64,000 bases of DNA from Gammaproteobacteria bacterium (GTDB lineage: Bacteria; Pseudomonadota; Gammaproteobacteria; GCA-001735895). How positions within the stretch are numbered: the stretch's first letter is position 1; each line of letters opens with the position of its first letter. Where the stretch lies: contig JAUVCH010000002.1 of the NCBI GenBank assembly GCA_030595795.1, forward strand, positions 7,216 to 71,215, written 5' to 3'. Below, piece after piece: positions 19,283 through 46,168 of this stretch. Under the pieces are notes generated by a model, which was not told the origin of the DNA, made no database searches, and saw only the letters and a program-made list of their open reading frames with translations. The position numbers and the translations under genes are program-made.

Positions 19283-19630
19283 AAGTTTAGTGTCTATAGT
19301 TTTTAAATATTATTTTAGTCGCATCACTCACCGATGCGAAATCTACCTTACATGAAATTTTTTTTCAGCGTTAAGGTTTTAGCGAAAAGAAATTGCTATC
19401 AGTCCGCTGAATCCGGATTTTATATTTATCACTTATTACGAATAATAAATCAGTTAACATTATTATTTAGGTAGGTTGTCTATGACAATCGCTATCCGTT
19501 GTATAATCCTTTAGGGGTAGAGCACTGCTCCAATATTCGTCATATGATTTAGTTATAAAAATATAATCAAAAAAAACAAATAAGAATGCCATGCAAATGC
19601 AGGCATCGAAGTTTATTGGAGGGGGACGCG
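19283..19630. promoter_or_regulatory. AT-rich divergent promoter region between the CHASE2 cyclase and the FecR/TPR/barrel gene
   Basis: About 300 bp, over 70% AT. Perfect TATAAT at about 19508 preceded by TTGTCT/TGACAA-like -35 candidates. GGAGGGGGA Shine-Dalgarno at 19618-19626. Confidence 0.4.
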
Positions 19631-22600
19631 TTGTTTACTTTATCGGTTCGATTTTATTCGAAATTAATCACTATATTCTTCATAACTCTGGTCGGTATAT
19701 CTGTCAGCAGACCAGCTATGGCCGCATGCGCCGAACTAGCAGGGAAATTCGTCTCCATCCAGGGCCAGGTAGATGTTCAGGCTCAGAATGGAAGTGCCTG
19801 GGATCTCGCCAAACTTGATGACGCTCTATGCGAAGGGGACAGTGTAAGGGTTGGTAAAGAAAGTCGAGCGGCTCTTTCTCTTGCAAATGATGCCGTACTG
19901 CGAATCGATGAAAACACAACCGTTCGGCTGGTTGATATAAATCAGGAGAAAAAAGAAAAATCACTTCTCGAACTGATATCGGGAGCAATCCAGTCTTTCA
20001 GCCGTAAACCTCGTGAGTTAGTAGTCAATACGCCATATCTCAATGGTTCTATCGAGGGTACTGAATTTATTATTAAAGTCGCTGACAACCAGACCCAGAT
20101 TACCGTATTTGAAGGTTTTGTCGTCGCGGCTAATGACCAGGGGGAAGTTCGGCTGGAGAGCGGACAGTCGGCTTCGGCCAGCGAGGGTAGCGCACCGGTA
20201 TCTCGAACCGTGATCAATCCCCGGGATCAGGTGCAGTGGGGATTATATTATCCGCCAATACTGTCGGCGGAAGGCGGCGCCAACGAACAGCGAGCCGCCG
20301 AATTACTGGCTTTAGGACAGATTAACGAAGCCAGTCAGATACTTGAAAGTGGTGCGGATTCACCGGTTGGGTTAGCCCTGCAGTCGGTAATTGCAATCAC
20401 TCTGAATGACCTGGAGGGGGCTCAGAATTACGCCGATAGAGCCGCTGCCCTGGACGCCAGCAGTGTCGCAGTAGCTATTGCTATGTCTTACGTGAAACAG
20501 GCACGGTTCGAACTAGAGCAGGCTCTGGCGGTCATTGACGCGGCGTTGCAGAAAGAATCTGGCAATGCATTACTGTGGGCTCGCGCTGGAGAATTGCGCC
20601 TGATGTCGGGGTTGAGCAGTGAGGCATTATCAGCAGCGAATAAAGCCAGCGAACTGGATCCGAATTCATCGCAGGCTAATCTGGTCAATGGTTTTGCTGC
20701 TTTATCGATTTTCGATACCGATCAGGCCGCGAGTAGTTTCAAAAATGCCATTGCACTCAATTCAGCTGATCCGATGGGTTACCTGGGACAGGGGTTGACT
20801 AAAATTAGCCAGGGTGATCTAGAAACCGGTCGCCATGACCTCGAAGTCGCTGTGAGCCTCGGTTCCAATAGTGCAATACTCCGCTCTTATCTGGGTAAAG
20901 CCTATTACGAAGAAAAGCGTAGTCCGCTGGAAGATCAGCAGTATAAAATTGCCCAACAACTCGATAGCAACGACCCGACCCCGTGGTTCTATCAGTCGAT
21001 TTCACAGCAAACACAAAATAATCCGGTAGAGGCCTTACAGAGTCAGCAAAAAGCGTTTGAGTTGAATGATAACCGCGCAGTTTATCGTTCGCGACTGTTG
21101 CTTGATTCTGACCGCGCAGCGCGCGGTGTTAGTTTGGGTCGGGTTTATAACGATCTGGGGTTTGAGCAACAAGCATTGGCGGAAGGTTGGAAATCAGTTA
21201 ATACCGATCCAACCAATTCCTCGGCGCATTTGTTTCTAGCCGACTCTTATGGAGCGTTACCGCGCCATGAAATCGCCAGAGTCAGCGAAGCGCTACAGGC
21301 TCAGATGTTGCAACCGGTTAATGCAGCTCCCGTTAGCCCAACCAAAGCGGAAGGTAAATTATTACTAGCTGCCAGTGGCCCCGCAGCAGTTGGATTCAAT
21401 GAATACAATGCGCTATTTGACCGTAATCAGACCAACGCGGTGATCAGTGGTATGGCGGGTGAGCATGGAACCAGTAGTGCAGAAGCTATAGTCTCGGGCT
21501 TACACGGTAAAACGGCATTCAGTGCAGGTATTTATCACTTTGAGACTGACGGTTTTCGTGACAGTGCTTTTCAGGAAGATGATATTGGCAACCTGTTCGT
21601 CCAGCATGATTTTAGTCTGGATACTAGTGTTCAGCTCGAATTCCGCTCGAGAGAAACCGAATACGGTGATGTTCGCCAGAAATTTCATGAGCATAGTATT
21701 TATCCAGACAAGTTAATTGTCGAGGAAACCGATACGCTACGTCTGGGTGCACGGCATTCTTTTGCGCCGGGGTCGGTGCTTCTTGTGTCACTAACTGATC
21801 AGGAAGGTAGCTTTAACGAGACCGATGAACCCTTCCCTCAGCCGGGGGTTCTCTTTTCCGAACTCGATAGCCCTGATCTTGAAGCAAAAGGCAGCGAGCT
21901 CCAGTACCTGTATCGTTCGCCTAAATTCAATGTTACTGCTGGTGTAGGTAATGTTGATTCTAAGGAGGATGTAACGAATAGAGCTTTACTTGATTTAGGC
22001 TTTTTTGGTGGTCCGCCTGGACTTTTATTGCCAATAGAAAGCGTCATTGAGGCAGATATCAAGCACGATAATGCTTATGCGTATTCGAATATCAATCTGA
22101 ACAACCAGATGATCATGACGCTTGGCGTTAGCTATGATGATGTTGATAGTGAATTTCTTGGAGAACCTGTAACGAAAACTAATCCAAAATTTGGCATGAC
22201 ATGGACACCGAATTCACAGACTACGGTGCGTTTGGCATCCTTCGAAACCATGAAACGTACCTTGTCTACGCAACAGACTCTGGAACCGACCCAGGTAGCT
22301 GGTTTTAATCAATTCTTCGATGACTATAACCTGACCGAAACAAAGCGCACAGGTATTGCGGTTGATTACAAATTTAATGCTAACCTGTCAGGTGGGCTGG
22401 AAATTTCAAAGCGGGAACTGGAGATACCCTACGTTGATTTGACCGCTTCACCACCCACGATAGAGGCTGCTGACTGGGAAGAGCGAACGAACCGAGCCTA
22501 TCTCTACTGGACACCCAATAAACAATGGGCACTGCGGGCTGAATATCTGTTTGAAAAACTGGAAAGGGGAGGCGGCACCTTTGTTGATGGTGTCATTGAA

Positions 22601-22921
22601 TCGGAGACGCATCGAGTTCCTTTTGGAGTCAGTTACTTTCACTCCGACAGGCTAAGTGCCTCTCTGACAGCGACTTATTATGATCAGGAGGGAGTATTCG
22701 GTGGTTTCTGGACCACGGATGCCATAGAGCCGGGTGAAGATGATTTCTGGATCGTCGATGCTGCGATTAATTACCTGCTACCCGGGAGGCGAGGTTTCGT
22801 CACAGTCGGTGCGACTAATTTAACCGATGAGGATTTCTCGTATTTCGACACGGACACGAATAACGCCAGCATACAACCCGCAAGCATGGTGTATGGCAAG
22901 TTGACATTATCGTTCCAATAA
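19631..22921 (+). CDS. Secreted FecR-domain / TPR / C-terminal beta-barrel protein (putative outer-membrane sensor or scaffold)
   Basis: ORF 19586..22921. Preferred start is TTG 19631, 8 nt after GGAGG, giving a classic signal peptide MFTLSVRFYSKLITIFFITLVGISVSRPAMA|A. Residues about 45-170 are FecR-like (VRVGKESRAALSLANDAVLRIDENTTVRL...GTEFII). Residues about 230-560 are TPR-like. The C-terminal about 500 aa has an alternating beta-strand pattern and ends KLTLSFQ, like an OM barrel. Confidence 0.65.
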   Translation: MFTLSVRFYSKLITIFFITLVGISVSRPAMAACAELAGKFVSIQGQVDVQAQNGSAWDLAKLDDALCEGDSVRVGKESRAALSLANDAVLRIDENTTVRLVDINQEKKEKSLLELISGAIQSFSRKPRELVVNTPYLNGSIEGTEFIIKVADNQTQITVFEGFVVAANDQGEVRLESGQSASASEGSAPVSRTVINPRDQVQWGLYYPPILSAEGGANEQRAAELLALGQINEASQILESGADSPVGLALQSVIAITLNDLEGAQNYADRAAALDASSVAVAIAMSYVKQARFELEQALAVIDAALQKESGNALLWARAGELRLMSGLSSEALSAANKASELDPNSSQANLVNGFAALSIFDTDQAASSFKNAIALNSADPMGYLGQGLTKISQGDLETGRHDLEVAVSLGSNSAILRSYLGKAYYEEKRSPLEDQQYKIAQQLDSNDPTPWFYQSISQQTQNNPVEALQSQQKAFELNDNRAVYRSRLLLDSDRAARGVSLGRVYNDLGFEQQALAEGWKSVNTDPTNSSAHLFLADSYGALPRHEIARVSEALQAQMLQPVNAAPVSPTKAEGKLLLAASGPAAVGFNEYNALFDRNQTNAVISGMAGEHGTSSAEAIVSGLHGKTAFSAGIYHFETDGFRDSAFQEDDIGNLFVQHDFSLDTSVQLEFRSRETEYGDVRQKFHEHSIYPDKLIVEETDTLRLGARHSFAPGSVLLVSLTDQEGSFNETDEPFPQPGVLFSELDSPDLEAKGSELQYLYRSPKFNVTAGVGNVDSKEDVTNRALLDLGFFGGPPGLLLPIESVIEADIKHDNAYAYSNINLNNQMIMTLGVSYDDVDSEFLGEPVTKTNPKFGMTWTPNSQTTVRLASFETMKRTLSTQQTLEPTQVAGFNQFFDDYNLTETKRTGIAVDYKFNANLSGGLEISKRELEIPYVDLTASPPTIEAADWEERTNRAYLYWTPNKQWALRAEYLFEKLERGGGTFVDGVIESETHRVPFGVSYFHSDRLSASLTATYYDQEGVFGGFWTTDAIEPGEDDFWIVDAAINYLLPGRRGFVTVGATNLTDEDFSYFDTDTNNASIQPASMVYGKLTLSFQ

Positions 22922-33017: not shown

Positions 33018-33485
33018 ATGAAGCAATACCACCTGGCACAGCTCAATATTGCCAAAATGAAATTCGCGATCGACGATCCAGGGATGGTCGAATTTGTTAA
33101 TCAGCTCGACAAAATTAACGCCCTGGCCGACTCCACAGCTGGTTTTGTCTGGCGTCTACAAACAGAAGAGGGTAATGCCACTGCGCTGGATTTCTTTGGT
33201 AGTGATATTCTGGTCAACATGAGTGTCTGGCAGGATATGCAGTCGTTACATGAGTATGTTTATCGGAGTGCCCATACTCAGGTGATGAGTCGGCGCAAGC
33301 AATGGTTCGACCGCATGGACGAGTTTTACGCGGTTTTGTGGTGGGTGCCAGCGGGCCATGTACCAACACTCGAAGAGGCCGATGACAGATTGCAGAATTT
33401 GAATCAGCATGGTTCGAGTGAAAGGGCGTTCACCTTCAAAAAAAGTTTCCCAGCCCTGGCCCCGACTCCGGTTACTGAAGACTAA
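33018..33485 (+). CDS. DUF3291 domain protein
   Basis: 155 aa. MKQYHLAQLNIAKMKF...VNMSVWQDMQSLHEYVY, family assignment recalled from memory. Confidence 0.55.
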   Translation: MKQYHLAQLNIAKMKFAIDDPGMVEFVNQLDKINALADSTAGFVWRLQTEEGNATALDFFGSDILVNMSVWQDMQSLHEYVYRSAHTQVMSRRKQWFDRMDEFYAVLWWVPAGHVPTLEEADDRLQNLNQHGSSERAFTFKKSFPALAPTPVTED

Positions 33486-33489
33486 ACCA

Positions 33490-34632
33490 TTGATCTTTTC
33501 CCGCAATTTATTAATCGCATTATGTGCGACGGTAGTATCGTTTAGCACTTTGTATATTCCACAGCCGATGTTGCCTTTGCTGGCGAATCTATTTTCTATT
33601 TCATCCAGCCAGGTGGGATTGTTGATAACAGTAACTTTTTTGCCTTTGGGTCTGGCGCCTGTGGTCTATGGTTATTTCCTGCAGGCGATACCAGCTCGGT
33701 TGATGTTAATCGTCGCGATGACCTTGTTAATGCTCGATCAACTGGCGTTTTATTTTGCCAGTGAATTTTGGCATCTGCTTATCCTTCGCGGCATCCAGGG
33801 ATTGATACTGCCAGCTGTATTTACCGCTCTAATGACTTACTGTGCGAGCATGGCTTCGCCAGGCACTGTTCGTCGTACCATGGGTCTTTATATCGGCGCT
33901 ACCATACTCGGTGGTTTTATCGGGCGCGCAATAGGTGGTTTTTTTGCGACCGGGTTTGCCTGGTATACGGCCTATGTTGTGATGGGTTTCGCAATGCTAC
34001 TGCCACTATTTTTAATGCGCTTCGCCAGTGCAGATGCCGAGATTAGTTTTCAGCGTCTGGATATCCGTAGCATTTCGCGCGTCATGGCTAATCGTGATTT
34101 TCGTTATGTATATCTGGTTTTGTCGGCGGTCTTTTTCGTCTATGCGAGTATTTTGAATTTAATCCCCTTCCGATTACTCGAAATCGATGCTTCGGTGTCA
34201 CCTGCATTCATATCCAGTCTTTACATTGGCTATCTTGTCGGCATTCCAATAGCGCTTTACTCTGAATCTCTGTCAAAGTTTTTAGGCGATGAACGGCGTG
34301 GTTTGATGCTGGGTGTGATGATGAATGGTATAGGGCTGGTGTCCTATTTGCTCACCGACTTCTCAATAATGTTCGTTATGATGTTTTGCTTTGCCGGGGG
34401 GTTCTTTTTCATCCACTCGACTCTCTCCGGTTTGGTCAACCATTTGGCTACCGAGCACAAGGGTGTGGTGAACGGCTTGTACGTATCGATTTACTATCTC
34501 AGTGGTGCGCTGGCTTCATGGCTACCGGGAATTGTTTATGATGAATTCGGCTGGTATGCCGTTATGACTGGGTTGATAGTTATGCTGATGATCGGTGGCT
34601 GGTTTGTTTCACGATTGAAATTCGACAGTTAG
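33490..34632 (+). CDS. MFS transporter
   Basis: 12-TM pattern. The ORF track start (33409) overlaps the upstream gene and precedes TM1 by 30 residues. TTG 33490, directly after the upstream stop, gives a sensible N-terminus (start uncertain). Confidence 0.65.
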   Translation: MIFSRNLLIALCATVVSFSTLYIPQPMLPLLANLFSISSSQVGLLITVTFLPLGLAPVVYGYFLQAIPARLMLIVAMTLLMLDQLAFYFASEFWHLLILRGIQGLILPAVFTALMTYCASMASPGTVRRTMGLYIGATILGGFIGRAIGGFFATGFAWYTAYVVMGFAMLLPLFLMRFASADAEISFQRLDIRSISRVMANRDFRYVYLVLSAVFFVYASILNLIPFRLLEIDASVSPAFISSLYIGYLVGIPIALYSESLSKFLGDERRGLMLGVMMNGIGLVSYLLTDFSIMFVMMFCFAGGFFFIHSTLSGLVNHLATEHKGVVNGLYVSIYYLSGALASWLPGIVYDEFGWYAVMTGLIVMLMIGGWFVSRLKFDS

Positions 34633-34662: not shown

Positions 34663-35541
34663 TTATTCATCTCCCCAGAGTAGTTTTCCACATTGTTCGA
34701 TTTTGTAACCGCCCAATTCGTTAGCTATCTGTAGGCCTTCTTCAGAACCGATTTTTTCGATTAGATTATGAAATAAATGCCTGAACCAGATATCGCGGGG
34801 TATCGCAAAATCGAAATGTTCCCAGCCTAGGCTGAGAAAGTCGAGGCCAAATTCGTTGGCGGTTGCACGTGAACCCAGTGCGATATCGCATTGTTGCAGG
34901 TTAATGGCTGCTGCGGCTTCGCGGTCTGAATGCGAGTGTGATTTTACGTTTAAACTATCGATGTTAAGACCGTGCTTGCTCAATATTTCTAATAAAAAGC
35001 GCTGCGAACCCGAACCCATGCGGTGAATATCCCAACTGAATTTTTGATCGAACATTTCGGGAATATCGAGACTTCGCTTCTGCGCATTAGCATCGAATAG
35101 CAAACCCTGCTCGCGTCGGTAAGCGCGGATCAGTATCCAGTTATGGCTGGCCGTATATTGCTGCAGCAGCGAGGGATGACGGGTAGCACTTTCTTTGGCG
35201 GGGCCCCAGTGTATACAACAGGCATCGACCCGATTAGCATTTAATAGTTCGAGCCCGGCGCGAGTGCTGGTATTGGTATAGGTGATGATAGCCTTGTTGC
35301 CAAGCGATTCCGAAAAGTCATTGATAATACGGTAGAGGAAAGGGTCATCACTACCGGCGATGATGAGTCGGTCACGTAGCAGACCATTGTGCGTTGAATC
35401 GAGCATCCACTTGTCGATCAACTCCTTGGGGAACATCCATTTACCGGTGATCTTGGTCGCGGGGATAATACCCCGATTGACCATGTCGTAAATTTTCTTC
35501 TCGTTTAAATGCAAATATCCCGAGACTTGTTTGACGTTCAT
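34663..35541 (-). CDS. Transcriptional regulator: excisionase-family HTH (HTH_17-like) N-terminal domain plus periplasmic-binding-protein-like (possibly ModA/TupA-type oxyanion-binding) C-terminal domain
   Basis: Start preferred at MNVKQVSGYLHLNEKKIYDMVNRGIIPATKITGKWMFPKELIDKWM (ATG 35541; ORF track gives 35583). The C-terminal 220 aa resemble a type-2 PBP fold. Divergently oriented to the FDH locus. Confidence 0.55.
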   Translation of the reverse strand: MNVKQVSGYLHLNEKKIYDMVNRGIIPATKITGKWMFPKELIDKWMLDSTHNGLLRDRLIIAGSDDPFLYRIINDFSESLGNKAIITYTNTSTRAGLELLNANRVDACCIHWGPAKESATRHPSLLQQYTASHNWILIRAYRREQGLLFDANAQKRSLDIPEMFDQKFSWDIHRMGSGSQRFLLEILSKHGLNIDSLNVKSHSHSDREAAAAINLQQCDIALGSRATANEFGLDFLSLGWEHFDFAIPRDIWFRHLFHNLIEKIGSEEGLQIANELGGYKIEQCGKLLWGDE

Positions 35542-35846
35542 GAATACGTCGATAGATTGATTTGTGATCAAGACCATAAGCATTGTTGAAGCAATAAATA
35601 TACCTGAATGAATTTTTGGGAAATAAATCTACAAGGACGGTAAGGTCTCTAGGGAAAAACGCTTTTAATGAGTTTAGATCTATTACATGTGGGTCGAATT
35701 GTCTCAACTTCACTGAGTGCCTGAGTCATTTTGTTCCAGGTTTCTGGTGGACGATGCAAATATAAAAGCTTTAATAACCCCTGGTGGCAGTGGTACGACT
35801 ATTGCAATTATGTATTGTATGAATCAGCGACTAAACAGATTGACCT

Positions 35847-36383
35847 ATGGGTGATATTCATTTGGAGGATTTTAATCAAACCCTGCCGCGGCAGAAAACT
35901 GTGTCAGCGGTAATTGAAAAGCGTGCCTCTGATAATGTCTGGTTAGACTTTACTTACAAAGCTATCGGTGTGGTGGTTGGTGAAGCTGGGCAGGAAAAGC
36001 AGGTTAAGCGGATATATCAGGACGGTAAGGTAGAGCATTTCCTGGTCACCGGGCTGGAGCTCAGGCTTCACGAAGATGAATGCGAGAGCTACTATCATAA
36101 TTTAATGTCACCGAAACCGGGTTGTTTTATCGTAGCTGAGGCCGTAGATGACCCGGATGAAATGCCGGTGCCCTACCTGGTGAGTTTGAGTTTTGATGAA
36201 GTCCATGCCTATCTCGAAGGCGACGAACAGGTTTACGCAGTAGAGATTCCCGCCGAGCTATATCAGTGGGCTGAAGCCTATGTGTTAACGCATTATGTCG
36301 CGATCAAAAAGACCAAACGAAAATTGAGGAACTGGACAGAGGAAGCCTCGGTAGCTGGAAAAGGCGCGCAAAAAACATCATGA
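35847..36383 (+). CDS. DUF3305-like protein (FDH-locus associated)
   Basis: 178 aa. First gene of the FDH-oriented block, overlaps the next gene by 4 nt. Family name recalled from memory. Confidence 0.5.
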   Translation: MGDIHLEDFNQTLPRQKTVSAVIEKRASDNVWLDFTYKAIGVVVGEAGQEKQVKRIYQDGKVEHFLVTGLELRLHEDECESYYHNLMSPKPGCFIVAEAVDDPDEMPVPYLVSLSFDEVHAYLEGDEQVYAVEIPAELYQWAEAYVLTHYVAIKKTKRKLRNWTEEASVAGKGAQKTS

Positions 36384-36967
36384 GCCAGAAGGAAGAGGAA
36401 GGCCTGTTATCGCGCTGGTCACGACGTAAATTACAAACACAGGAAGAGAGCCTCAAGGAAGAAGCAGTTTTGGCCACAGAACACCCGGATGTCGTCAATG
36501 CGATCAGTGTTGATGCGCCGCAGGCCGAAGTGCCCGACCAACCAGTTCTATCTGACGAAGATATGCCACCCATCGAATCGCTTACCGAAGACTCGGATTT
36601 TAGCGGATTCATGTCCTCAGGAGTGAGCGATAAATTACGCAATTTGGCTTTGCGAAAAATGTTTCATGCGCCGGTTTTCAATATACGTGATGGCCTCGAT
36701 GAATACGACGAAGACTATACATTTTTCGAACCGCTGGGTGATATTGTCACTTGTGATATGAAGCATCAAGTCGAAATGCTGGAGAAGAAGCGACTTGAAG
36801 AAGCGGAGCTGGAGGCGGCTGAAGAGCCAGTCGAAGCCGAGCTTGAGCCAGTCGAAGCTGAGCTTGAGCAGGCCGACGATGAGGATGATGAGCCCGAGCT
36901 TATCGACGACGAACCCGAACAACCCGAACAACCCGATCAAAGTGATATAACAGTAGAAAAATTATGA
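36380..36967 (+). CDS. DUF3306-like acidic protein (FDH-locus associated)
   Basis: 195 aa. N-terminal LSRWSRRK, very acidic C-terminal region (EAELEAAEEPVEAELEPVEAELEQADDEDDEPELIDDE). 4-nt overlap with both neighbours. Confidence 0.5.
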   Translation: MSQKEEEGLLSRWSRRKLQTQEESLKEEAVLATEHPDVVNAISVDAPQAEVPDQPVLSDEDMPPIESLTEDSDFSGFMSSGVSDKLRNLALRKMFHAPVFNIRDGLDEYDEDYTFFEPLGDIVTCDMKHQVEMLEKKRLEEAELEAAEEPVEAELEPVEAELEQADDEDDEPELIDDEPEQPEQPDQSDITVEKL

Positions 36968-38523
36968 GCCAGTCTAATCTTGATGCACGCGAATCGGCGC
37001 TTTCCGTACTCGATAGCTTTCAGACCACTGCGACCAGTCTGGTTAGCTATCAGTCTAACGGGCGAGCCATTGCCATCGGGGACGATGAGGCACTAGCCTG
37101 TTGTCGGCAATGGTCAGATCAATCCATTTTGACTCTGGTGTCTGCATCCGAGAAGGAGATTGTTGTGCAGGGTTATCTGGGTTCTTTTATTGTCAGGCTA
37201 ATTGACTCGAATGGTAACCCGCAAAATCTGGAAGCCGATATCGTGCTTGATCTAAATCCAGATCCGATAAATCAGAATGAAATATTGCCGCCAGGTTATC
37301 TACATACCTCGATAAACGAAGAAAATCAGCGCGAGGTCGAGGCACAGGTATTAGATCTGGTGGGTGAGTTCGAAAAGCCGAAATACTTTATCTATGATCC
37401 ATCGATTTGCGCGCACTCGGTGAATGGGGTCACTGTTTGCAGTCGGTGCATCGATGCCTGTCCAGCGGGTGCAATCCAAAGTGGCGGCAGTGAGATCGAA
37501 GTCGTGCCGTTTCTCTGTCAGGGTGGTGGAACCTGCGCCACGGTTTGTCCATCGGGAGCGATTCAGTACGCCTATCCGAATCTGTCGGATAGTGGTAATC
37601 AGATCCGCAAAATGTTGCAGGCTTACCGTGAAGCACAGGGAGAACGGGCTGCTGTACTATTTCATGGGGAAGCTTTTTCACCGCAGGCGTTAATGCGGCA
37701 ACACGATAATCTATTACCAGTCCGGGTTGAGGAGCTTGCCAGCGTAGGAGTCGAGTTATGTATGTCGGCACTCGCCTATGGTGCCTCTCAGGTGGTATTG
37801 ATGCTCGACGAAACAGTACCAGGGCTGTCTATAGAAAATCTTAAGCGGCAAGTCGACTGGATGCAGGTTTTGCTAAAAAGTATTGGCATTAATCCCCAGC
37901 AGATTAGCCTTCAGTCCGATTTGATGGCGTTGTCCATGATCGATTCCGCTATCGCTATTGATCCTGCTATACACAGCATGGCGGATGGTAAACGTAATGC
38001 TTTTTATCAGGCACTGGATCACCTGGTCACACAGTTCGGTTGTGCTGACGTGGTTGCTGACCTGCCCGCGGGTGCGCCATTTGGCACGGTGGTCATCGAC
38101 GAAAATAAATGCACGCTGTGCATGGCCTGTATTGGTGCTTGTCCGGGTCGAGCCTTGCAGGATGGTTCTAATCGGGAAGTGCCCGAAGTGTTTTTCATCG
38201 AGAATCATTGCATTCAATGCGGTGCCTGCACTCAGACTTGCCCGGAGCAGGCGATTACCCTGGCGCCTCGCCTCATATTTGATCGGGAAAGCAGAAATAA
38301 ATCGCAGGCGCTCAATCGTGATGAACCGTTTGGTTGTATCGAATGCGGGAAACCTTTCGCGCCGACTTCGGTGATTGAAAAAATGCTGACACAACTAGAA
38401 GACCATCATATGTTTAATACGCCTCGCGCGCTGGATCGACTGAAGATGTGCGAAGACTGTCGAGTGGTGGATATTGTCCAGGATCCAGAAGCGATGAAGG
38501 GTGATTTTGACGCACTTAATTAG
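36964..38523 (+). CDS. Multi-cluster 4Fe-4S ferredoxin-domain protein
   Basis: 519 aa with at least four CxxCxxCxxxCP motifs. Confidence 0.7.
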   Translation: MSQSNLDARESALSVLDSFQTTATSLVSYQSNGRAIAIGDDEALACCRQWSDQSILTLVSASEKEIVVQGYLGSFIVRLIDSNGNPQNLEADIVLDLNPDPINQNEILPPGYLHTSINEENQREVEAQVLDLVGEFEKPKYFIYDPSICAHSVNGVTVCSRCIDACPAGAIQSGGSEIEVVPFLCQGGGTCATVCPSGAIQYAYPNLSDSGNQIRKMLQAYREAQGERAAVLFHGEAFSPQALMRQHDNLLPVRVEELASVGVELCMSALAYGASQVVLMLDETVPGLSIENLKRQVDWMQVLLKSIGINPQQISLQSDLMALSMIDSAIAIDPAIHSMADGKRNAFYQALDHLVTQFGCADVVADLPAGAPFGTVVIDENKCTLCMACIGACPGRALQDGSNREVPEVFFIENHCIQCGACTQTCPEQAITLAPRLIFDRESRNKSQALNRDEPFGCIECGKPFAPTSVIEKMLTQLEDHHMFNTPRALDRLKMCEDCRVVDIVQDPEAMKGDFDALN

Positions 38524-38632
38524 TATGTAAGTTATTTATTACCCATTATGGTTATAAATAGTTATTATTCCCCTATATATTTTGGAATGCAGGTTGCTAT
38601 ATATTTTGGATAAAAACAATGAAACCGAAGAC

Positions 38633-39295
38633 ATGACATCAATCGCCACTGCCCTGCCTATAGAAAGTGGTTCTATAGAGGCAACCGACTTGCTGGGTGA
38701 GTGCCCAGATAGCGAGACTATTAGCGAGGAGCAGCGTTACCGTGCGTCCGCCTATGGTTTGCTGGCCGCGTTGCTACGTAGCTCTCCCGATCAGGTTATG
38801 CTCAGTCAATTGTGTGATCTTTGTGAAACTACCAGCGAAGGCGACGAGCTTATGCTGTCGATGTCGATGCTTGCGCTGGCGGCAAAGGTGCATAACGCTG
38901 AAGATGTTGAGGATGAATTTCATCAATTGTTTATCGGTTTGGGTAAGGGTGAAGTTGTCCCGTATGGATCGTGGTATTTGACCGGGTTTCTCATGGAGAA
39001 GCCGCTGAGCGATCTACGAGAAGATTTGGCGAGACTCGGTTTTGAGCGAAGTGACGATGTCGCCGAGCCGGAAGATCACGCCGCTGCGTTGTGCGAAGTG
39101 ATTTCGATCATGATCGGCGATGCGAGCGAGCTTTCGGAGCAGGATCAATTTTTTCAAACCCATATGGCCAACTGGCTGGATCGATTTTTTAATGACCTGG
39201 GTAATGCCGGTTCTGCCGTTTTTTATAAATCTGTTGCACGTTTTGGTGCCGCATTTATCGCATTGGAAAAACAGTATTTTTCCATGCAAGTATGA
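38633..39295 (+). CDS. TorD/DmsD-family redox enzyme maturation chaperone
   Basis: About 220 aa. EPEDHAAALCEVISIM motif typical of the TorD/NarJ family. Lies directly upstream of the Tat-dependent FDH catalytic subunit. ORF track start TTG 38582, ATG 38633 preferred. Confidence 0.6.
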   Translation: MTSIATALPIESGSIEATDLLGECPDSETISEEQRYRASAYGLLAALLRSSPDQVMLSQLCDLCETTSEGDELMLSMSMLALAAKVHNAEDVEDEFHQLFIGLGKGEVVPYGSWYLTGFLMEKPLSDLREDLARLGFERSDDVAEPEDHAAALCEVISIMIGDASELSEQDQFFQTHMANWLDRFFNDLGNAGSAVFYKSVARFGAAFIALEKQYFSMQV

Positions 39296-39338
39296 GTTGT
39301 TGATAGCAATCTAATCGACCTTTCGAGGGGAGTATCTG

Positions 39339-39545
39339 GTGAAAAAGACAAATGAGACGTTAAACAATAATAGACGGGATTTCATAAAGAAATCAGCTCT
39401 GGTTGGTGTGGGTGTCGCTGCCAGTACGGTCGCAAGTGGCGAGGCCATGGCGGCAGTGACGACTGACACTGTCGAAACCGGGAAAAATAAAGGCTATCAA
39501 CTAACACAACATGTTGCTGATTATTACAAATCAGCAGCAAGCTAA
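39339..39545 (+). CDS. Small twin-arginine signal protein ('formate dehydrogenase region TAT target' type)
   Basis: 68 aa, NNNRRDFIKKSALVGVGVAA Tat motif. GTG start after GAGGGGAG. Confidence 0.55.
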   Translation: MKKTNETLNNNRRDFIKKSALVGVGVAASTVASGEAMAAVTTDTVETGKNKGYQLTQHVADYYKSAAS

Positions 39546-39563
39546 ACGCGAGGAGATTGAAAT

Positions 39564-42443
39564 ATGAGTAAATTAACCAAAAAATCGAATCGCCCGGCCC
39601 AGGTCGCTTTGAAGAAGAGTCCAGGCGAAGCGATTAGTCGTCGTTCCTTTTTAAAGAATTCCAGTCTGATGGCCGGCGGCGCAGCATTAACTTCCACTGT
39701 TGCACCCGTCATGATGAAAAAAGTCCAGGCCGCTTCGGTAACCGGTGGCGATGCGGAGCAGATCAAAACCATATGCACGCACTGTTCGGTGGGTTGTGGC
39801 ATTATTGCCGAGGTGCAAAACGGAGTGTGGACGGGTCAGGAGCCTGCTTTCGACCACCCTTTTAACAAGGGCGCGCATTGTGCTAAAGGTGCTTCGATTC
39901 GCGAGCACGGCCACGGCGAGCGCCGTCTCAAATACCCAACTAAACTGGTTGGTGGCAAATGGAAGAGGGTTTCCTGGGAAGAAGCGATCAATGAGATTGG
40001 CGACAAGCTACTCGATATTCGTGAAAAATCCGGCCCCGATTCGGTTTACTGGCTAGGTTCGGCTAAACACAGTAATGAGCAGGCCTATCTGTTCCGTAAG
40101 ATGGCGGCGATGTGGGGAACCAATAATGTCGATCACCAGGCGCGAATCTGTCACTCCACTACGGTTGCCGGGGTAGCCAATACCTGGGGTTATGGTGCGA
40201 TGACCAATTCCTACAACGATATCCACTTCTCCAAATCGGTATTGTTGATCGGTTCTAATCCGGCCGAAGCGCATCCGGTGGCTTTACAGCATATTTTTAA
40301 AGCCAAGGAAGAAAATAATGCACCGATTATTGTTATCGACCCGCGTTACACTCGTACTGCCGCGCATGCCGATCATTACCTGAAAATCCGCCCTGGTACC
40401 GACGTACCGATCATCTGGGGCATGCTCTGGCACATATTCGAAAACGGTTGGGAAGATAAGGAATTTATCCGTCAGCGTGTTTACGGCCTTGACGATGTTA
40501 TGGCCGAAGTGAAGAACTGGACGCCCGATGAAGTTGAACGCGTCACTGACGTACCTGGACATCTGGTTAAGGCTGCGGCTAAGGCCATGGCCGACAATCG
40601 TCCCGGTACCTTTATCTGGTGCATGGGTGGTACTCAGCACACGGTCGGTAATAATAATACACGTGCTTATTGTGCCTTCCAGCTGGCACTTGGCAATATG
40701 GGTGTGTCTGGTGGTGGTGCGAATATTTTCCGTGGACACGATAACGTACAGGGCGCTACCGATCTGGGTGTATTGTCGAACACCTTGCCCGGTTATTACG
40801 GTCTGAGTTCGGGGTCATGGAAGCATTGGTCTCGGGTCTGGGATCTGGATTACGAATGGGTTAAAGGCCAGTTCGATGGCGGTAGCTATGAGCAGAGTAA
40901 AGGCAAGGATGTCCATGTCATGAACACCAAGGGTATTCCGGTTTCGCGCTGGATTGATGGTGTACTCGAAGAGAAATCAAATATCGCTCAGAAAGACAAT
41001 GTTAAGGCGATGATCCTCTGGGGCCATGCACCTAACAGTCAGACCCGTGGTGTGGAACAGAAAAAGGCGATGGAAAAGCTTGATTTAATGGTAGTCGTCG
41101 ATCCTTATCCAACCGTATCGGCAGTTATGCATGACCGTACCGACGGAGTGTATTTATTACCGGCCGCCACGCAAATGGAAACTTATGGATCGGTTACCGC
41201 TTCAAACCGTTCTTTCCAATGGCGTTCGAAGGTTATCGATCCATTGTTCGAGTCACTGCCAGACCATACCATCATGTATAAGCTCACCAGGAAGCTTGGT
41301 TTATCTGACCAGTTGTTTAAAAACATTAAGATTAATGGCGAGGAGCCGCTGGTCGAAGACGTGTTGCGAGAAATCAATAGTGGTATGTGGACTATCGGTT
41401 ACACAGGACAAAGTCCTGAGCGGCTGAAGAAGCATCAGGAAAACTGGGGTACCTTCGATTACGATACATTACAGGCTGAGGGCGGCCCTGCTGATGGTGA
41501 TTACTACGGGTTACCATGGCCATCCTGGGGAACACCGGAGATGAACCATCCGGGCACGCCGAATCTGTATGATACCTCTAAGTCAGTCGCTGAGGGTGGT
41601 TTGACCTTCCGTGCTCGATTCGGTGTAGAACGCGATGGCGTTAATTTGCTGGCCGAAGGTTCTTACGGTAAGGACTCGGAAATCAAAGATGGTTACCCGG
41701 AATTCAGTGATAAGATGCTGAAAAAACTGGGTTGGTGGGATGACCTGACCGCTGAAGAAAAAGCAGCAGCAGAAGGCAGAAACTGGAAAACCGATCTCTC
41801 CGGTGGCATACAACGTGTTGCGATTAAACACGGTTGTTCGCCATTTGGTAATGCCAAGGCGCGAGCGATGGTCTGGACCTTCCCGGATCCGGTACCGATT
41901 CATCGAGAGCCGCTTTATACCTCGCGGCGCGATCTGGTGGACAAGTATCCGACTTATGAAGATCGAAAATCATTCTGGAGACTGCCAACTCGGTATAAGT
42001 CTATCCAGGAGCAGGATTTCTCCAAAGACTATCCTCTTATTCTAACTTCCGGGCGACTGGTCGAGTACGAGGGTGGTGGTGATGAGACTCGCTCTAATGC
42101 CTGGCTTGCCGAGTTACAGCAGGACATGTTTGTCGAAATCCATCCGCGCGATGCCAACAACGCGGGTATTAAAGACGGCGACGACGTTTGGGTCGAAGGT
42201 GCTGAATCCGCAAAGGTTAAAGTTAAGGCACAGGTTACTCGAAGGGTCGGTTCCGGCGTGGCATTTATGCCATTCCACTTCGCTGGTCATATGCAGGGTG
42301 AAGACAGGAGCTCTAAATATCCAGAGGGTGCCGCACCGTATGTTTCGGGTGAAGCAGCCAATACTGCGATGACCTACGGTTACGACTCAGTGACACAAAT
42401 GCAAGAATCAAAATGCAGCTTGTGCCGCATTACCAAAGCTTAA
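39564..42443 (+). CDS. Formate dehydrogenase catalytic (alpha) subunit, molybdopterin, Tat-exported, Cys-type (FdnG/FdoG-like)
   Basis: 959 aa. Tat signal SRRSFLKNSSLMAGGAAL, N-terminal [4Fe-4S] motif CTHCSVGCGI. Active-site region HQARICHSTTVAG with Cys (TGT at 40150-40152) where E. coli FdnG has Sec. Confidence 0.9.
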   Translation: MSKLTKKSNRPAQVALKKSPGEAISRRSFLKNSSLMAGGAALTSTVAPVMMKKVQAASVTGGDAEQIKTICTHCSVGCGIIAEVQNGVWTGQEPAFDHPFNKGAHCAKGASIREHGHGERRLKYPTKLVGGKWKRVSWEEAINEIGDKLLDIREKSGPDSVYWLGSAKHSNEQAYLFRKMAAMWGTNNVDHQARICHSTTVAGVANTWGYGAMTNSYNDIHFSKSVLLIGSNPAEAHPVALQHIFKAKEENNAPIIVIDPRYTRTAAHADHYLKIRPGTDVPIIWGMLWHIFENGWEDKEFIRQRVYGLDDVMAEVKNWTPDEVERVTDVPGHLVKAAAKAMADNRPGTFIWCMGGTQHTVGNNNTRAYCAFQLALGNMGVSGGGANIFRGHDNVQGATDLGVLSNTLPGYYGLSSGSWKHWSRVWDLDYEWVKGQFDGGSYEQSKGKDVHVMNTKGIPVSRWIDGVLEEKSNIAQKDNVKAMILWGHAPNSQTRGVEQKKAMEKLDLMVVVDPYPTVSAVMHDRTDGVYLLPAATQMETYGSVTASNRSFQWRSKVIDPLFESLPDHTIMYKLTRKLGLSDQLFKNIKINGEEPLVEDVLREINSGMWTIGYTGQSPERLKKHQENWGTFDYDTLQAEGGPADGDYYGLPWPSWGTPEMNHPGTPNLYDTSKSVAEGGLTFRARFGVERDGVNLLAEGSYGKDSEIKDGYPEFSDKMLKKLGWWDDLTAEEKAAAEGRNWKTDLSGGIQRVAIKHGCSPFGNAKARAMVWTFPDPVPIHREPLYTSRRDLVDKYPTYEDRKSFWRLPTRYKSIQEQDFSKDYPLILTSGRLVEYEGGGDETRSNAWLAELQQDMFVEIHPRDANNAGIKDGDDVWVEGAESAKVKVKAQVTRRVGSGVAFMPFHFAGHMQGEDRSSKYPEGAAPYVSGEAANTAMTYGYDSVTQMQESKCSLCRITKA

Positions 42444-42461
42444 CTAGCGAGGAACTATAAA

Positions 42462-43055
42462 ATGGCTAGAATGAAATTTTATTGCGATGCGGAACGCTGT
42501 ATTGAGTGTAATGCCTGTGTCACCGCCTGTAAGAATGAGCACGAAATCCCCTGGGGTGTTAATCGTCGCCGTGTGGTAACGATTAAAGATGGTCAGCAGG
42601 GTGAGCGATCACTCTCGGTGGCCTGTATGCATTGTTCCGATGCACCCTGTGCGGCTGTTTGCCCTGTCGATTGTTTTTACACGACGGACGATGGTGTGGT
42701 TTTGCACGACAAGGATATCTGTATCGGTTGTGGCTACTGTTTTTACGCCTGTCCTTTTGGCGCACCACAGTTCCCCGAAAATGCTGCATTTTCGTCGCGT
42801 GGCAAAATGGATAAGTGTACTTTCTGTGCTGGTGGCCCAGAAGATGACCATAGTTCCGACGAGTACAAGAAATACGGTCGCAACCGTCTTGCCGAAGGTA
42901 AGTTGCCGCTTTGTGCTGAAATGTGTTCGACTAAGGCGCTACTGGCTGGTGATGCCAATATGCTGTCCGATATCTATCGGAAACGCATTATCAACCGTGG
43001 AGCCAGCGTACTCAATTGGGGTGTCAACTATGACAAGGTCAAGTTGAATACCTAA
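42462..43055 (+). CDS. Formate dehydrogenase iron-sulfur (beta) subunit
   Basis: 197 aa with four Cys clusters (CIECNACVTAC, CMHCSDAPCAAVCP, CIGCGYCFYACP, CTFCAGG...CAEMC). No C-terminal TM helix. Confidence 0.85.
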   Translation: MARMKFYCDAERCIECNACVTACKNEHEIPWGVNRRRVVTIKDGQQGERSLSVACMHCSDAPCAAVCPVDCFYTTDDGVVLHDKDICIGCGYCFYACPFGAPQFPENAAFSSRGKMDKCTFCAGGPEDDHSSDEYKKYGRNRLAEGKLPLCAEMCSTKALLAGDANMLSDIYRKRIINRGASVLNWGVNYDKVKLNT

Positions 43056-43156
43056 AGGGTAATCAATAATAAAATAGTTTGGCCGGGTTTTGATAATAAA
43101 AGATATCAGAACTCGGCTTGATTTTTGGCTAAGAGACAATAACGAGAGGTTGTCGC

Positions 43157-44245
43157 ATGCTTAAACAGAATATGGTCAGCCCTGTGGGAGATATCTTGAA
43201 ATTTTTATCGATATTGATGCTGCTGGTTATCACCGTCATTTCACAGCCGACATTTGCTGCTGTAGAAGGTGAACCCGAAGGTGTCATCATGAAGAATCCC
43301 GGTGCGGATTTATGGCGTGAGGTTCGGCAAAGAAATATAGCCATAGAAGGCATTAGCCAGATCAAGAGTGTCGATAGCGGAATTTTGATTAACCCAGAAG
43401 CTGACCGTTGGACCAGATTTCGAGTTGACCAGTTAGTAAACTATGCTGCAATCATATTGGCTGGATTGGCGCTATTGCTGCTAGTATTCTATTTGTTGCG
43501 CGGAAAAATAAAAGTTGAGGGTGGGCTGTCGAGACAGATGTTGCACCGATTTAGTGACTACGAGAGAGTATTACACTGGACCCTGGCGATTGTCTTCCTC
43601 TTTCTAGCTATAACGGGATTAACCCTGTTGTTAGGAAGAACTTTCCTGATCCCCCTGTTTGGACAGGAATTTTTCTCCTTACTGGCTTCGTCGAGTAAAG
43701 AAGGTCATAACTTATTCGGGCCAATTTTCTTTGCATCCCTGATAATGATGATACTTCGATTTGTGAAAAGGAATATTTATGAAAAAGGAGACCTTACCTG
43801 GCTGGTAAAAGGAGGTGGGATTATCGGCAAGTCTCATGTTTCTGGTGGATTTTTTAACATGGGTGAGAAGACCTGGTACTGGATAGTTATACTGATCGGG
43901 CTGCTTATTTCCGTCAGTGGGTTGATTCTGGTTTCCCCTAACTTTGGTCAGGGGCGAGTGATCATGGAGTTGTCACACATCGTGCATGTGATTAGTGCAA
44001 TTATTCTGATCGCGGTTTCTTTCGGACATATGTATTTGGGTTCGGTGGGTACAGAGGGCGCCCTTGAAAGCATGAAAACTGGCTACGTTGATGTTAATTG
44101 GGCAGAGTCACATCATGACCGCTGGGCAAAGGAGTGCCGCGACAATAATAGAGTGATCTCGGCCGATAAATTTAACAGGTTGCAGGGTAAGATTAACAGT
44201 GGAACGGAAGAGTCCGGCTCGGTAGCAGTGGAGGGTAATAAATAA
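43157..44245 (+). CDS. Formate dehydrogenase cytochrome b (gamma) subunit with N-terminal periplasmic extension
   Basis: 362 aa. Signal peptide plus about 90-aa extension, then a 4-TM b-type cytochrome core with conserved His (RVLHWTLA..., HIVHVISAIIL...GHMYLG). Confidence 0.8.
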   Translation: MLKQNMVSPVGDILKFLSILMLLVITVISQPTFAAVEGEPEGVIMKNPGADLWREVRQRNIAIEGISQIKSVDSGILINPEADRWTRFRVDQLVNYAAIILAGLALLLLVFYLLRGKIKVEGGLSRQMLHRFSDYERVLHWTLAIVFLFLAITGLTLLLGRTFLIPLFGQEFFSLLASSSKEGHNLFGPIFFASLIMMILRFVKRNIYEKGDLTWLVKGGGIIGKSHVSGGFFNMGEKTWYWIVILIGLLISVSGLILVSPNFGQGRVIMELSHIVHVISAIILIAVSFGHMYLGSVGTEGALESMKTGYVDVNWAESHHDRWAKECRDNNRVISADKFNRLQGKINSGTEESGSVAVEGNK

Positions 44246-44883
44246 TGGCAACTTTCATTGATGGGTTCTTGTGGTATTTTGCGCTGGCTGTTTTTGTAAT
44301 TGGGGTAAGCGGAAACCTGGTCACGATCATTCTGGCCAGTCGGAAAGTAGATTTATCGGTACCGCGCGATTCAGCTTTTTCGGGCGCCTTAAGAACCTTA
44401 TTTTCTCGCTTCCTGCCAGATCAACATATGTTGTCTCGCATCGGTATACAGGTTGTGGCGGGTTATATGTTTCATCTGGGATTATTCATCTTATTGTTTT
44501 TCGCCGCGCCGCATGTTGCTTTTCTCGAAGAAAATATTCTTGGGTTTGGCTGGACAGCGGCACCTCACTGGCTCTTTATAGTAGCGTCCCAATTTGCCTT
44601 TCTCGGCATAATCATGCTGTGGCTGTATCGTATGACGAATTCGGTATCACGGTTAATTTCAAAACTGGACGATCATGTTGCAACCATATTGACATTTCTA
44701 GTGATGCTTAGCGGTTGCCTGGCATTGCTGGAGTCGTTCGAAACATTGCGCCTACTACACCGGTTTCTAGTTGAGTTACTGTTAATTTATTTCCCCTTTA
44801 GCCGTTTAATGCATGCATTTACTTTTGTTCCTAGTCGGCTTTTCACCGGTGCATGGTTTGGCCGAAGAGGTGTTGATTCATGA
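44245..44883 (+). CDS. NarI-fold membrane cytochrome b (DsrM/HdrE/HmeC-like)
   Basis: 212 aa, 5 TM helices, His in TM2 (MFHLG, PHVAF) and the C-terminal PFSRLMHAF motif matching the NarI-family PF(T/S)RLVH heme-ligand motif. Start overlaps the stop of fdh-gamma (ATAATGG). Confidence 0.6.
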   Translation: MATFIDGFLWYFALAVFVIGVSGNLVTIILASRKVDLSVPRDSAFSGALRTLFSRFLPDQHMLSRIGIQVVAGYMFHLGLFILLFFAAPHVAFLEENILGFGWTAAPHWLFIVASQFAFLGIIMLWLYRMTNSVSRLISKLDDHVATILTFLVMLSGCLALLESFETLRLLHRFLVELLLIYFPFSRLMHAFTFVPSRLFTGAWFGRRGVDS

Positions 44884-44899
44884 TAACCGGAGGTCAACT

Positions 44900-46168
44900 A
44901 TGAGTGAGAGACTGGAACGAGGCCTTAGTAAGCTAAGGTCTCAAATTGATCCAAAGGTTAAATCGTTTTTCTCGAGCTGTGTGCACTGTGGAATTTGTGC
45001 AGAATCCTGTTTGTTTTTTACTGAAACCCGTGATCCTCGCTATACACCTATTTATAAAACCGAGCCATTGCGTAAGGTCTGGCAACAGGAATATACGTTC
45101 TGGGGAAAGTTAGCCAGTAAGTTGGGGATAGCAGCGCCGATAGCAGAGCAGGATTTAGCCGACTGGGAGGAACTGGTTTACGATGGTTGCTCGATGTGCG
45201 GTCGCTGTAGCATGGTTTGCCCAATGGGTATAGATATTGCGCAGATTATCTTCAAGGTCAAAACTGGTCTGTCGGCGGCAGGATTCTCGCCACCAGATCT
45301 TGCCGAAACCACTCAACGTGCAGTCGATATTGGTAGCCCGATGGGTGTGAAGCTCCCCGCATTGCAAGCTCAAATAGGCCATATCGAAGAAGAAATAAAT
45401 TTAAAAATCCCGGTCGATGTCGAAGGGTCAGAGTATATGGCGCTGCTGTCGTCGATGGAAATTATGTATTTCCCGGAGTATATTTCGGCCCTTGCAAAAA
45501 TATTCCATCAGGCTGGCGTTAGCTGGACACTTTGCTCCGATGCGTTTGAGGCAACAAACTCCGGTCTGCAAATTGGTAATACCGAGGTAGCCGGGGTTTT
45601 GGTCGAAAGGATTGTTGCCGGTGCCGAGAAGCTGAAGGTGAAAAACGTGATTAGCCCGGAATGCGGTCACGCTTATACAGCGATTCGATGGGAGGGGCCT
45701 AATTTCATCGGCAGACCTTATTCCTTTAAAGTCGTGCATATCCTGGAACTACTCGACGAACTACTCCAGTCAGGCCGTCTGAAAACAACGGGTAAGGAAT
45801 CTTCTCGACTCACTTTTCACGATCCGTGTTCTATCGTGCGTAGGGGTGGGGTTGAGACGCAACCACGTCATATATTAAATGCTATAGCAGAAAATGCGGT
45901 TGAAATGACCGAGCACGGTGCTATGAACTGGTGCTGTGGCGGTGGTGGTGGCGTCAGTGGCAATGAAAGAGCAGAGCCGCTAAAACTAAAAGTCTTTAAC
46001 CGAAAAAAATCACAGCTCGAGGAGCTTGATGTTGAAACTATTGTAACTTCCTGTTCCAATTGCCGATTGGTCATCGAAGATGGTCTGGAAGCAAATGATA
46101 TGGAAATTAATATAGTCGGTTTAACCGAAATGCTTGCTGACCACCTGGTTGTAGATAATTCTCAATAG
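44900..46168 (+). CDS. CCG-domain iron-sulfur oxidoreductase (HdrD/DsrK/GlpC-like)
   Basis: About 420 aa. Two ferredoxin-like motifs (CVHCGICAESC, CSMCGRCSMVCP) followed by Cys-rich CCG-type regions (HDPCS..., NWCCGGGGG, TSCSNCR). ATG 44900 after GGAGG; ORF track start 44813 overlaps the upstream gene. Confidence 0.7.
   Translation: MSERLERGLSKLRSQIDPKVKSFFSSCVHCGICAESCLFFTETRDPRYTPIYKTEPLRKVWQQEYTFWGKLASKLGIAAPIAEQDLADWEELVYDGCSMCGRCSMVCPMGIDIAQIIFKVKTGLSAAGFSPPDLAETTQRAVDIGSPMGVKLPALQAQIGHIEEEINLKIPVDVEGSEYMALLSSMEIMYFPEYISALAKIFHQAGVSWTLCSDAFEATNSGLQIGNTEVAGVLVERIVAGAEKLKVKNVISPECGHAYTAIRWEGPNFIGRPYSFKVVHILELLDELLQSGRLKTTGKESSRLTFHDPCSIVRRGGVETQPRHILNAIAENAVEMTEHGAMNWCCGGGGGVSGNERAEPLKLKVFNRKKSQLEELDVETIVTSCSNCRLVIEDGLEANDMEINIVGLTEMLADHLVVDNSQ

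Follow-up and report, generated by a model that had tools for sequence, protein, structure and literature searches.

The locus discussed here raises a simple question. A regulator gene, REG, is transcribed divergently from a formate dehydrogenase (FDH) operon, and its product joins a DNA-binding domain of the excisionase type to a domain that resembles the periplasmic binding proteins (PBPs); what does this protein sense, and is it the one that acts on the DNA between the two transcription units? We analysed the window, i.e. the whole stretch of 64,000 nucleotides from a gammaproteobacterial contig (JAUVCH010000002.1), and all positions given below refer to it. The regulator gene and its domains are arranged as follows.

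34663..35577, minus strand: regulator gene REG, 304 aa including a 12-residue N-terminal extension (ORF list, homologue lengths, Pfam)
35395..35544, minus strand: HTH_17/excisionase-type winged helix-turn-helix, residues 12-61 (Pfam, AlphaFold secondary structure)
34666..35370, minus strand: type-II periplasmic-binding-protein-like sensor domain, residues 70-304 (PBP_like)

The longest minus-strand frame for REG in the ORF list spans 34663..35583. The homologues are mostly 304 aa long, which matches the ATG at 35577, while the preliminary description had chosen the second ATG at 35541 as the start. Both ATGs are conserved, and between them the relatives differ mostly synonymously over the 'IDVF' codons; since these changes are codon-like, the 12-residue extension looks translated. 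For a protein of 304 aa, the divergent intergenic region previously placed at 35542-35846 shortens to 35578-35846, i.e. 269 bp.

The suspected architecture, an excisionase-family (HTH_17-like) helix-turn-helix combined with a type-2 PBP-like domain, was borne out by Pfam: HTH_17 (PF12728; E 1.6e-10, 41.5 bits, cutoff 27) and PBP_like (PF12727; E 1.8e-33, 115.7 bits, cutoff 27) both exceed their gathering cutoffs and lie far above chance. Among the NCBIfam models, several of the excisionase type match the N-terminus, all under their cutoffs, and the C-terminal 230 residues align, below cutoff, to the C-terminus of MoeA-PBP fusion proteins (PRK14498). There is no signal peptide, hence the sensor domain is expected to be cytoplasmic. 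A role of REG as an excisionase or recombination directionality factor was ruled out, as the protein has 304 aa with a PBP domain and its match to TIGR01764 is below cutoff; there are no integrase genes among the window ORFs scanned. A PDB sequence search with REG gave no match at E <= 1.

Structure prediction with AlphaFold, based on an alignment of 85 sequences (22-91% identity), gave a model with a pLDDT of 92.7, as opposed to only 37 for a single-sequence model. Residues 12-61 are modelled as a winged helix of the order strand-helix-helix-hairpin-helix (pLDDT ~95); 'LNEKKIY' opens what is probably the recognition helix, and the wing is IPATKITGKWMFP. In the 85-sequence alignment the winged helix is the best-conserved part of the protein family-wide, and no gammaproteobacterial relative, at identities of 30 to 91%, departs from the 'NEKK' of the recognition helix. 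Residues 70-304 are modelled as a two-lobed type-II PBP with conserved Gly/Ser-rich loops at the N-termini of three helices (AGSDDP, TSTRAGL and RMGSGS; the family-wide versions in the alignment are AGS-D, GS..GL and RQ.GSG). The structural check that the preliminary description had proposed for the C-terminal domain thus returned a type-II PBP, and its nearest solved folds are those of tetrahedral-oxyanion binders, namely PstS, a molybdate SBP, WtpA with tungstate and a sulfate-binding protein. TupA, ModA and WtpA share the fold (3lr1, 7tav, 3cfz) and have equivalent Gly/Ser loops at helix N-termini; TupA matches PF12727 weakly, and a weak hhalign match (probability 18%) sets the REG loops opposite the GTG and DSGT loops of TupA. 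Unlike these binding proteins, the REG domain resides in the cytoplasm, joined to a domain that binds DNA, and its sequence is only distantly related to theirs. An oxyanion is a plausible ligand. By the fold, tungstate and molybdate are indistinguishable from phosphate and sulfate as ligands, and phosphate binders rank first among the fold neighbours of the domain.

Domain architecture and the association with Mo/W genes place REG in the TaoR family of transcription factors, which combine an excisionase-like winged helix with a cytoplasmic PBP of the oxyanion type: REG has an N-terminal HTH_17 domain, a C-terminal PF12727 domain and genes of Mo/W transport or Mo/W enzymes in its neighbourhood. 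TaoR reportedly switches on aor, which encodes a tungstoenzyme, and represses tupABC under tungstate-replete conditions, and Rajeev et al. 2019 (Environ Microbiol 21:784) are said to have described a DNA-binding domain of the excisionase kind for it and to have predicted targets elsewhere in the Proteobacteria. The architecture, which had been introduced to us as poorly characterised, is already described as the TaoR family (PMC11980592; PMC10102598) and is better called thinly studied, though not unknown. HTH_17 and PBP-like are given as the 'canonical' TaoR domains in PMC11980592, where TaoR regulates the tungsten aldehyde oxidoreductase, and PMC10102598 cites Rajeev et al. 2019, the founding paper, and has DVU3193 as a regulator of tupABC.

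REG resembles TaoR in two respects. Firstly, the two proteins share the same two-domain plan of HTH_17 and PF12727 in ~300 aa. Secondly, they share a genomic link to tungstate/molybdate transport, to cofactor synthesis and to Mo/W enzymes. They differ in that the clade of REG, whose closest members come from uncultured marine Gammaproteobacteria, goes with a periplasmic FDH operon of the Cys type plus fdhD/moa and not with aor, and in that the putative target promoters of REG belong to the sigma-54 class and have ZraR-like enhancers. ModE is similar in its role, as REG is likewise proposed to be a cytoplasmic oxyanion sensor that would repress a transporter and adjust Mo-enzyme genes, but ModE is an unrelated protein with another HTH and with Mop/TOBE domains, for which REG gave no Pfam match at E <= 0.01. 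TunR, which belongs to a different family (a XerC-like head plus Mop), was dropped as a model for REG.

The divergent FDH operon extends over 35847..44245 on the plus strand (Pfam, NCBIfam) and contains the following genes, annotated with the same two libraries.

35847-36383, plus strand: DUF3305 protein
36380-36967, plus strand: DUF3306 protein
36964-38523, plus strand: poly-ferredoxin (FeS), 519 aa
38582-39295, plus strand: TorD-like chaperone
39339-39545, plus strand: FdhX, 'formate dehydrogenase region TAT target' peptide
39564-42443, plus strand: FdhA, 959 aa, Cys active site
42462-43055, plus strand: FdhB
43157-44245, plus strand: FdhC, cytochrome-b

The active-site residue of FdhA is Cys and not Sec, as 'ARICHS' is read without an in-frame stop. 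The gene order of the operon is kept in relatives, and so is its partnership with REG. A species-level genome scan with REG yielded 16 loci (53-91% identity), all from uncultured marine Gammaproteobacteria. In 12 of them REG and the same FDH operon are transcribed away from each other, with moaA-fdhD lying in between in 2 of these 12; the remaining 4 loci end at contig edges, and two of them still carry moaA-fdhD or fdhD upstream. In relatives at 43, 41, 37 and 30% identity, the FDH operon is each time paired with a divergent fdhD-REG operon, while the rest of the neighbourhood is unrelated; the cultured species Granulosicoccus antarcticus (CP018632.1) is among these relatives. The synteny on which the preliminary description had staked the link between regulator and FDH is thus retained wherever the relatives are informative, over the whole range of 91 to 30% identity. 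The family as a whole is a large one, with 1487 clusters at the 50% identity level (E <= 1e-3), and its more distant members point in a similar direction: alphaproteobacterial plasmid copies with 23-27% identity are divergent from, or end, a tupBCA-like ABC transporter operon, two of them are accompanied by moeA, and FDH genes occur within 10 kb in 3 of 6.

In many relatives REG is found inside fdhD operons or moaA-fdhD-...-moaC operons (the order in locus L013 is moaA-fdhD-REG-moaC). Taken by itself, this embedding would suit a protein that, co-expressed with fdhD, moaA and moaC, is mainly an accessory of cofactor maturation, handing over an oxyanion, and not a physiologically important regulator, the more so as the same PBP domain is fused to MoeA, where such a hand-over may occur. 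We consider this very improbable in view of the winged helix, which is better conserved across the family than any other part, and of TaoR, the one studied member, which is a DNA-binding regulator.

As to the ligand, we infer by analogy with the TaoR family that REG senses intracellular tungstate or molybdate via its PBP domain. The preliminary description had seen in REG a candidate regulator of FDH responsive to molybdate/tungstate or to formate; the first part is reasonable and has gained strength from synteny and fold, with the ligand itself still drawn by analogy, and nothing points to formate. REG could also be a transcription factor of this family with another ligand, such as phosphate, sulfate, formate or a molybdopterin intermediate. 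Among the PF12727 proteins of known structure, those given in PMC10443332 are phosphate binders, and TaoR is tungstate-dependent in vivo, yet its DNA binding in vitro is unaffected by tungstate (PMC12327845). However, the neighbourhoods are specific for Mo/W across the whole family (tupABC-like, moeA, moaA, moaC, fdhD and FDH genes) and PF12727 doubles as the C-terminal domain of MoeA fusions, so another ligand appears improbable to us.

The remaining part of the question concerns the 269 bp between REG and the FDH operon, for which the window was aligned with 10 relatives (11 loci). The alignment contains four well-conserved blocks and a weakly conserved GCTTTT stretch. The following elements were located.

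35590-35604, minus strand: sigma-54-type -24/-12 promoter toward REG, GGTATATTTATTGCT (pattern GGYAY-N5-TTGCW, conservation)
35689-35706, strand not assigned: dyad C, TGAGACAATTCGACCCAC on the minus strand (PWM score 21.8, the best in the window)
35721-35738, strand not assigned: dyad B, TGGAACAAAATGACTCAG on the minus strand (PWM score 19.5)
35792-35806, plus strand: sigma-54-type -24/-12 promoter toward the FDH operon, T-GGTACGACTATTGCA / TGGTACGACTATTGCA (35791-35806) (pattern GGYAY-N5-TTGCW, conservation)

The pattern GGYAY-N5-TTGCW has only two matches in the 64 kb, both in the REG-FDH intergenic region and each facing its own gene; as 1.24 matches are expected by chance, the count is not unusual, whereas position, orientation and conservation are. 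The block GGTATATTTATTGCTT of the REG-side promoter is nearly invariant in the 11 aligned loci, and equivalents of this promoter precede moaA or fdhD in four loci (L013, L015, L024, L026). The FDH-side promoter agrees with the consensus TGGCACG-N4-TTGCW in 11 of 12 positions and is kept as TGGTAY-N5-TTGC in all aligned loci. The -12 GC of the REG-side promoter is ~14 nt from the ATG at 35577, so the REG mRNA would be nearly leaderless. A simple scan of the intergenic region gave no sigma-70-like promoter, and an Rfam scan of the window gave no matches. Two exceptions were found among the relatives: L027 has no recognisable sigma-54 promoter on the fdhD side, and L028 has none despite its dyads.

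The two dyads are 18 bp each, lie 32 bp apart and are the two best PWM matches in the window. They are imperfect 7-3-7 palindromes of the type TGCGACA-N3-TGTCGCA, with the consensus TGsGACAwwwTyGwCCCA. With respect to the inferred FDH start, which is expected near 35817 on the plus strand, dyad B is centred at ~-87 and dyad C at ~-119; with respect to the inferred REG start, expected near 35579 on the minus strand, the dyads are centred at ~-118 (C) and ~-150. Dyad C is conserved in all loci. The spacing between the dyads is 30-34 bp, mostly 32-34, wherever both pass the scan threshold, and this includes relatives of 41-54% identity outside the PWM set; in L006, L027 and L028 only one dyad is above the threshold. 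The distances between dyads and promoters shift from locus to locus in steps of ~10-11 bp, with the exceptions of L016 and L013 and among loci many of which are closely related. These steps suggest looping. What is new in this locus is the layout itself, i.e. two divergent promoters, assigned to sigma-54 by their sequence, which flank two dyads.

It is instructive to set this layout beside the zraP-zraSR region of E. coli, whose divergent sigma-54 promoters are under the control of ZraR (PMC4987338). There, too, two divergent sigma-54 promoters surround two 7-3-7 dyads, which are 31 bp apart, and GAGTCATTTT is common to one ZraR site and dyad B. The two systems are nevertheless different in several respects. 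Firstly, the local PWM gives the ZraR sites scores of no more than 7.6-11.7. Secondly, ZraR governs a zinc/envelope stress regulon, as opposed to FDH, tupA and Mo/W cofactor genes. Thirdly, the activator gene is not adjacent to the dyads in the window. Together with ZraR, NtrC at glnAp2 can be named as the closest enhancer-type system for the dyad layout. The FhlA enhancer at E. coli fdhF was also considered as a model for the dyads; the resemblance is loose (GTCA-N4-TGAC) and there is no PWM match, and the ZraR layout was preferred.

Which protein binds the dyads? The preliminary description expected the intergenic region to hold the operator of REG, and what the region displays instead is sigma-54 promoters and ZraR-like dyads, with no recognisable REG operator; the alignment of the window and 10 relatives revealed no separate conserved operator for REG. 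The AAA+ Sigma54_activat domain with its GAFTGA loop is absent from the 304-aa REG by Pfam and NCBIfam, and without it REG would be unable to activate sigma-54 promoters. The Sigma54_activat AAA+ domain was found in separate response regulators of L014, L015 and L027. In L014 and L015, which are outside the set used to build the dyad PWM, further dyad sites occur upstream of tupA sigma-54 promoters (TGGCAT-N5-TTGC), two sites 32 bp apart in each, and they share the intergenic region with a divergent gene of the type REC-Sigma54_activat-HTH_8 plus an sCache histidine kinase. The same kinase/response-regulator pair is present 2.5 kb from REG in Granulosicoccus antarcticus CP018632.1, L006, L007 and L009 carry C-terminal fragments of the kinase at the distal end of the FDH operon, and the FDH operons of Sagittula and Salipiger end in a sigma-54 activator gene. 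The enhancer-binding proteins of the relatives are 41% identical to ZraR and resemble it in the HTH_8 recognition helix, SRKTLERK as compared with TRKTLLAK. Given the ZraR-like layout and the presence of the same pairs at tupA promoters beside an activator gene, we read the dyads as putative enhancer sites, quite probably those of an NtrC/ZraR-type response regulator and not of REG. The 64-kb window contains no gene for an enhancer-binding protein, nor any tup, mod or moa gene, and for this reason the proposed activator is deduced from the relatives only.

The reading that has to be weighed against this one is that REG itself binds both dyads, e.g. as a LysR-like dimer of dimers, and controls its own gene and FDH in response to tungstate/molybdate. 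The dyads occupy the place where one would typically expect a divergent transcription factor to bind and regulate its own gene, and they track REG down to 30% identity, with an invariant 'LNEKKIY' helix whose 'NEKK' is unchanged wherever they occur. They co-occur with REG in every locus examined, though all of these loci were found through REG. In the same sense, tupA too has dyads upstream, and control of tupABC has been reported for TaoR (PMC10102598); L028 has dyads where no sigma-54 promoter can be recognised. Moreover, full-length LysR regulators are the top Foldseek matches for REG, and a protein composed of an HTH and a type-II PBP could span dyads ~30 bp apart as a tetramer. The likeness to LysR-type regulators, an N-terminal winged helix followed by a type-II PBP effector domain, holds at the fold level only: the head of REG is excisionase-like and lacks the long linker helix, and neither of the Pfam models HTH_1 and LysR_substrate matches.

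Several observations speak against binding by REG. Promoters of the sigma-54 type need an AAA+ activator, which REG is not, and apart from the weakly conserved GCTTTT no further conserved intergenic block is left that could serve as enhancer sites. The dyads are at enhancer distances (87-150 bp upstream), and both their form and their paired layout match ZraR sites. The tupA dyads of L014 and L015 adjoin the gene of the enhancer-binding protein, whereas the REG gene is ~8 kb (L014) or ~6 kb (L015) away. Finally, the alphaproteobacterial family members have direct ATGCA-N5-ATGCA repeats instead of such dyads. On balance, we regard binding of the dyads by REG as unlikely, if a serious contender.

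The explanation that best accounts for the locus as a whole, to which we would give a probability of about 0.6, is therefore a co-regulated Mo/W sensor of the TaoR type within a sigma-54 enhancer module that has a separate activator. REG and the FDH operon would be transcribed from the two divergent sigma-54 promoters, which would share the two dyads. An NtrC/ZraR-type response regulator with an sCache histidine kinase would act at the dyads; the pair would be encoded outside the window, and in relatives its genes adjoin tupA, terminate the FDH operon or follow closely after REG. REG would be a co-regulated member of the regulon rather than its primary activator, and may tune the expression of FDH, cofactor or transporter genes as a second, cytoplasmic checkpoint.

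A more elaborate, and in our view doubtful, version is a two-tier circuit in which the sCache kinase and the sigma-54 regulator would read an external signal and switch on the divergent sigma-54 promoters, while REG, made from one of these promoters, would read the cytoplasmic oxyanion pool and feed back on the same promoters, possibly at the same dyads as a LysR-like tetramer. If this were true, REG would be an AAA+-less modulator of enhancer-dependent transcription, serving a periplasmic FDH in widespread uncultured marine Gammaproteobacteria.

To our knowledge, the control of the synthesis of W- or Mo-dependent FDHs is poorly understood beyond E. coli (ModE, FhlA) and Desulfovibrio (TaoR, TunR). 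The present locus adds to the TaoR family a close partnership, conserved very widely, with an FDH operon and with the maturation genes fdhD/moa. It also yields a concrete cis-regulatory map of two putative sigma-54 promoters and two dyads, which points to control by a two-component system together with a cytoplasmic sensor. The advance is incremental, since the TaoR family and its link to Mo/W genes have already been published. The cultured Granulosicoccus antarcticus (CP018632.1) has the same layout, which makes the system experimentally tractable.

A minor observation concerns the ATGCA-N5-ATGCA direct repeats. They were tried as an operator of REG and rejected, as gammaproteobacterial copies are found only in the window and in L016, at non-equivalent positions. 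The repeats are present in all three divergent alphaproteobacterial loci.

In the window and in the related locus L001, the sigma-54-type promoter of the TaoR-family regulator gene directly adjoins the ATG at 35577, as seen in an alignment of the upstream regions of the regulator gene in which the region 35577-35604 was set against that of the relatives' loci L003-L016. This arrangement implies a nearly leaderless mRNA. In the same alignment, the gap between promoter and ATG is 60-90 bp longer in most relatives than in the window, and the extra stretch contains a conserved, partly palindromic element (e.g. GCATGCCAAATAAATATGCA in L007) that is missing from the window in the comparison with L003-L016. 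The element may be an autoregulatory site that was lost in the window.

Another kind of element, WWTGCA direct repeats in two or three copies with 10-11 bp spacing, is found directly upstream of the regulator start in the alphaproteobacterial relatives (23-27% identity). The repeats are divergent from a tupBCA-like operon, and they are a candidate operator type for the alphaproteobacterial branch of the regulator family:

L017, 7955-7985: WWTGCA direct repeats
L018, 8000-8020: WWTGCA direct repeats
L019, 7978-7997: WWTGCA direct repeats

Other neighbours of the regulator gene include:

Window, 33409-34632 (+): MFS transporter gene, convergent with the regulator gene
L014, 1363-4272: genes of a secreted, ankyrin-repeat-like protein and of a Rieske protein
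L015, 8460-10659: genes of the same two proteins

The stop codons of the MFS transporter and regulator genes are 30 bp apart in the window, and the transporter gene keeps its position beside the regulator in L002, L004, L005, L007 and L016. The ankyrin-repeat-like and Rieske genes lie between the regulator gene and Mo-cofactor/two-component genes, and the Rieske protein is similar to SoxL2 and to the arsenite-oxidase small subunit.

At the start of the FDH operon, the DUF3305 protein (35847-36383) aligns to the C-terminal part of the NCBIfam model 'MobA, DUF3305 domain-containing' with an E-value of 5e-12, below the cutoff. The match hints at a role of DUF3305 and DUF3306 in guanylyl-molybdopterin cofactor handling for FDH. 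At the other end of the operon lie two further genes:

44245-46168: two genes after fdhC

The product of the first is membrane-like, 212 aa long and faintly matched by Nitrate_red_gam; the second encodes a 451-aa HdrD/GlpC-like CCG/Fer4_8 protein. Neither gene follows fdhC in the relatives examined; the end of a histidine-kinase gene takes their place in L006, L007 and L009.

Elsewhere in the window there are two more features:

17027-22921: CHASE2-adenylate/guanylate cyclase gene, divergent from the gene of a FecR-domain/TPR protein (1111 aa)
57140-64000 (+): reading frame that stays open for 2286 codons or more and runs past the window end

The CHASE2-cyclase/FecR-TPR signalling pair has no relation to the regulator-FDH finding. 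The ORF listing has no long entry at 57140-64000 since the reading frame runs off the window end, and no Rfam matches were found there. Given a signal-like N-terminal segment followed by repetitive Asp/Thr/Gly-rich sequence, the product of this reading frame is probably a surface protein or adhesin of giant size.
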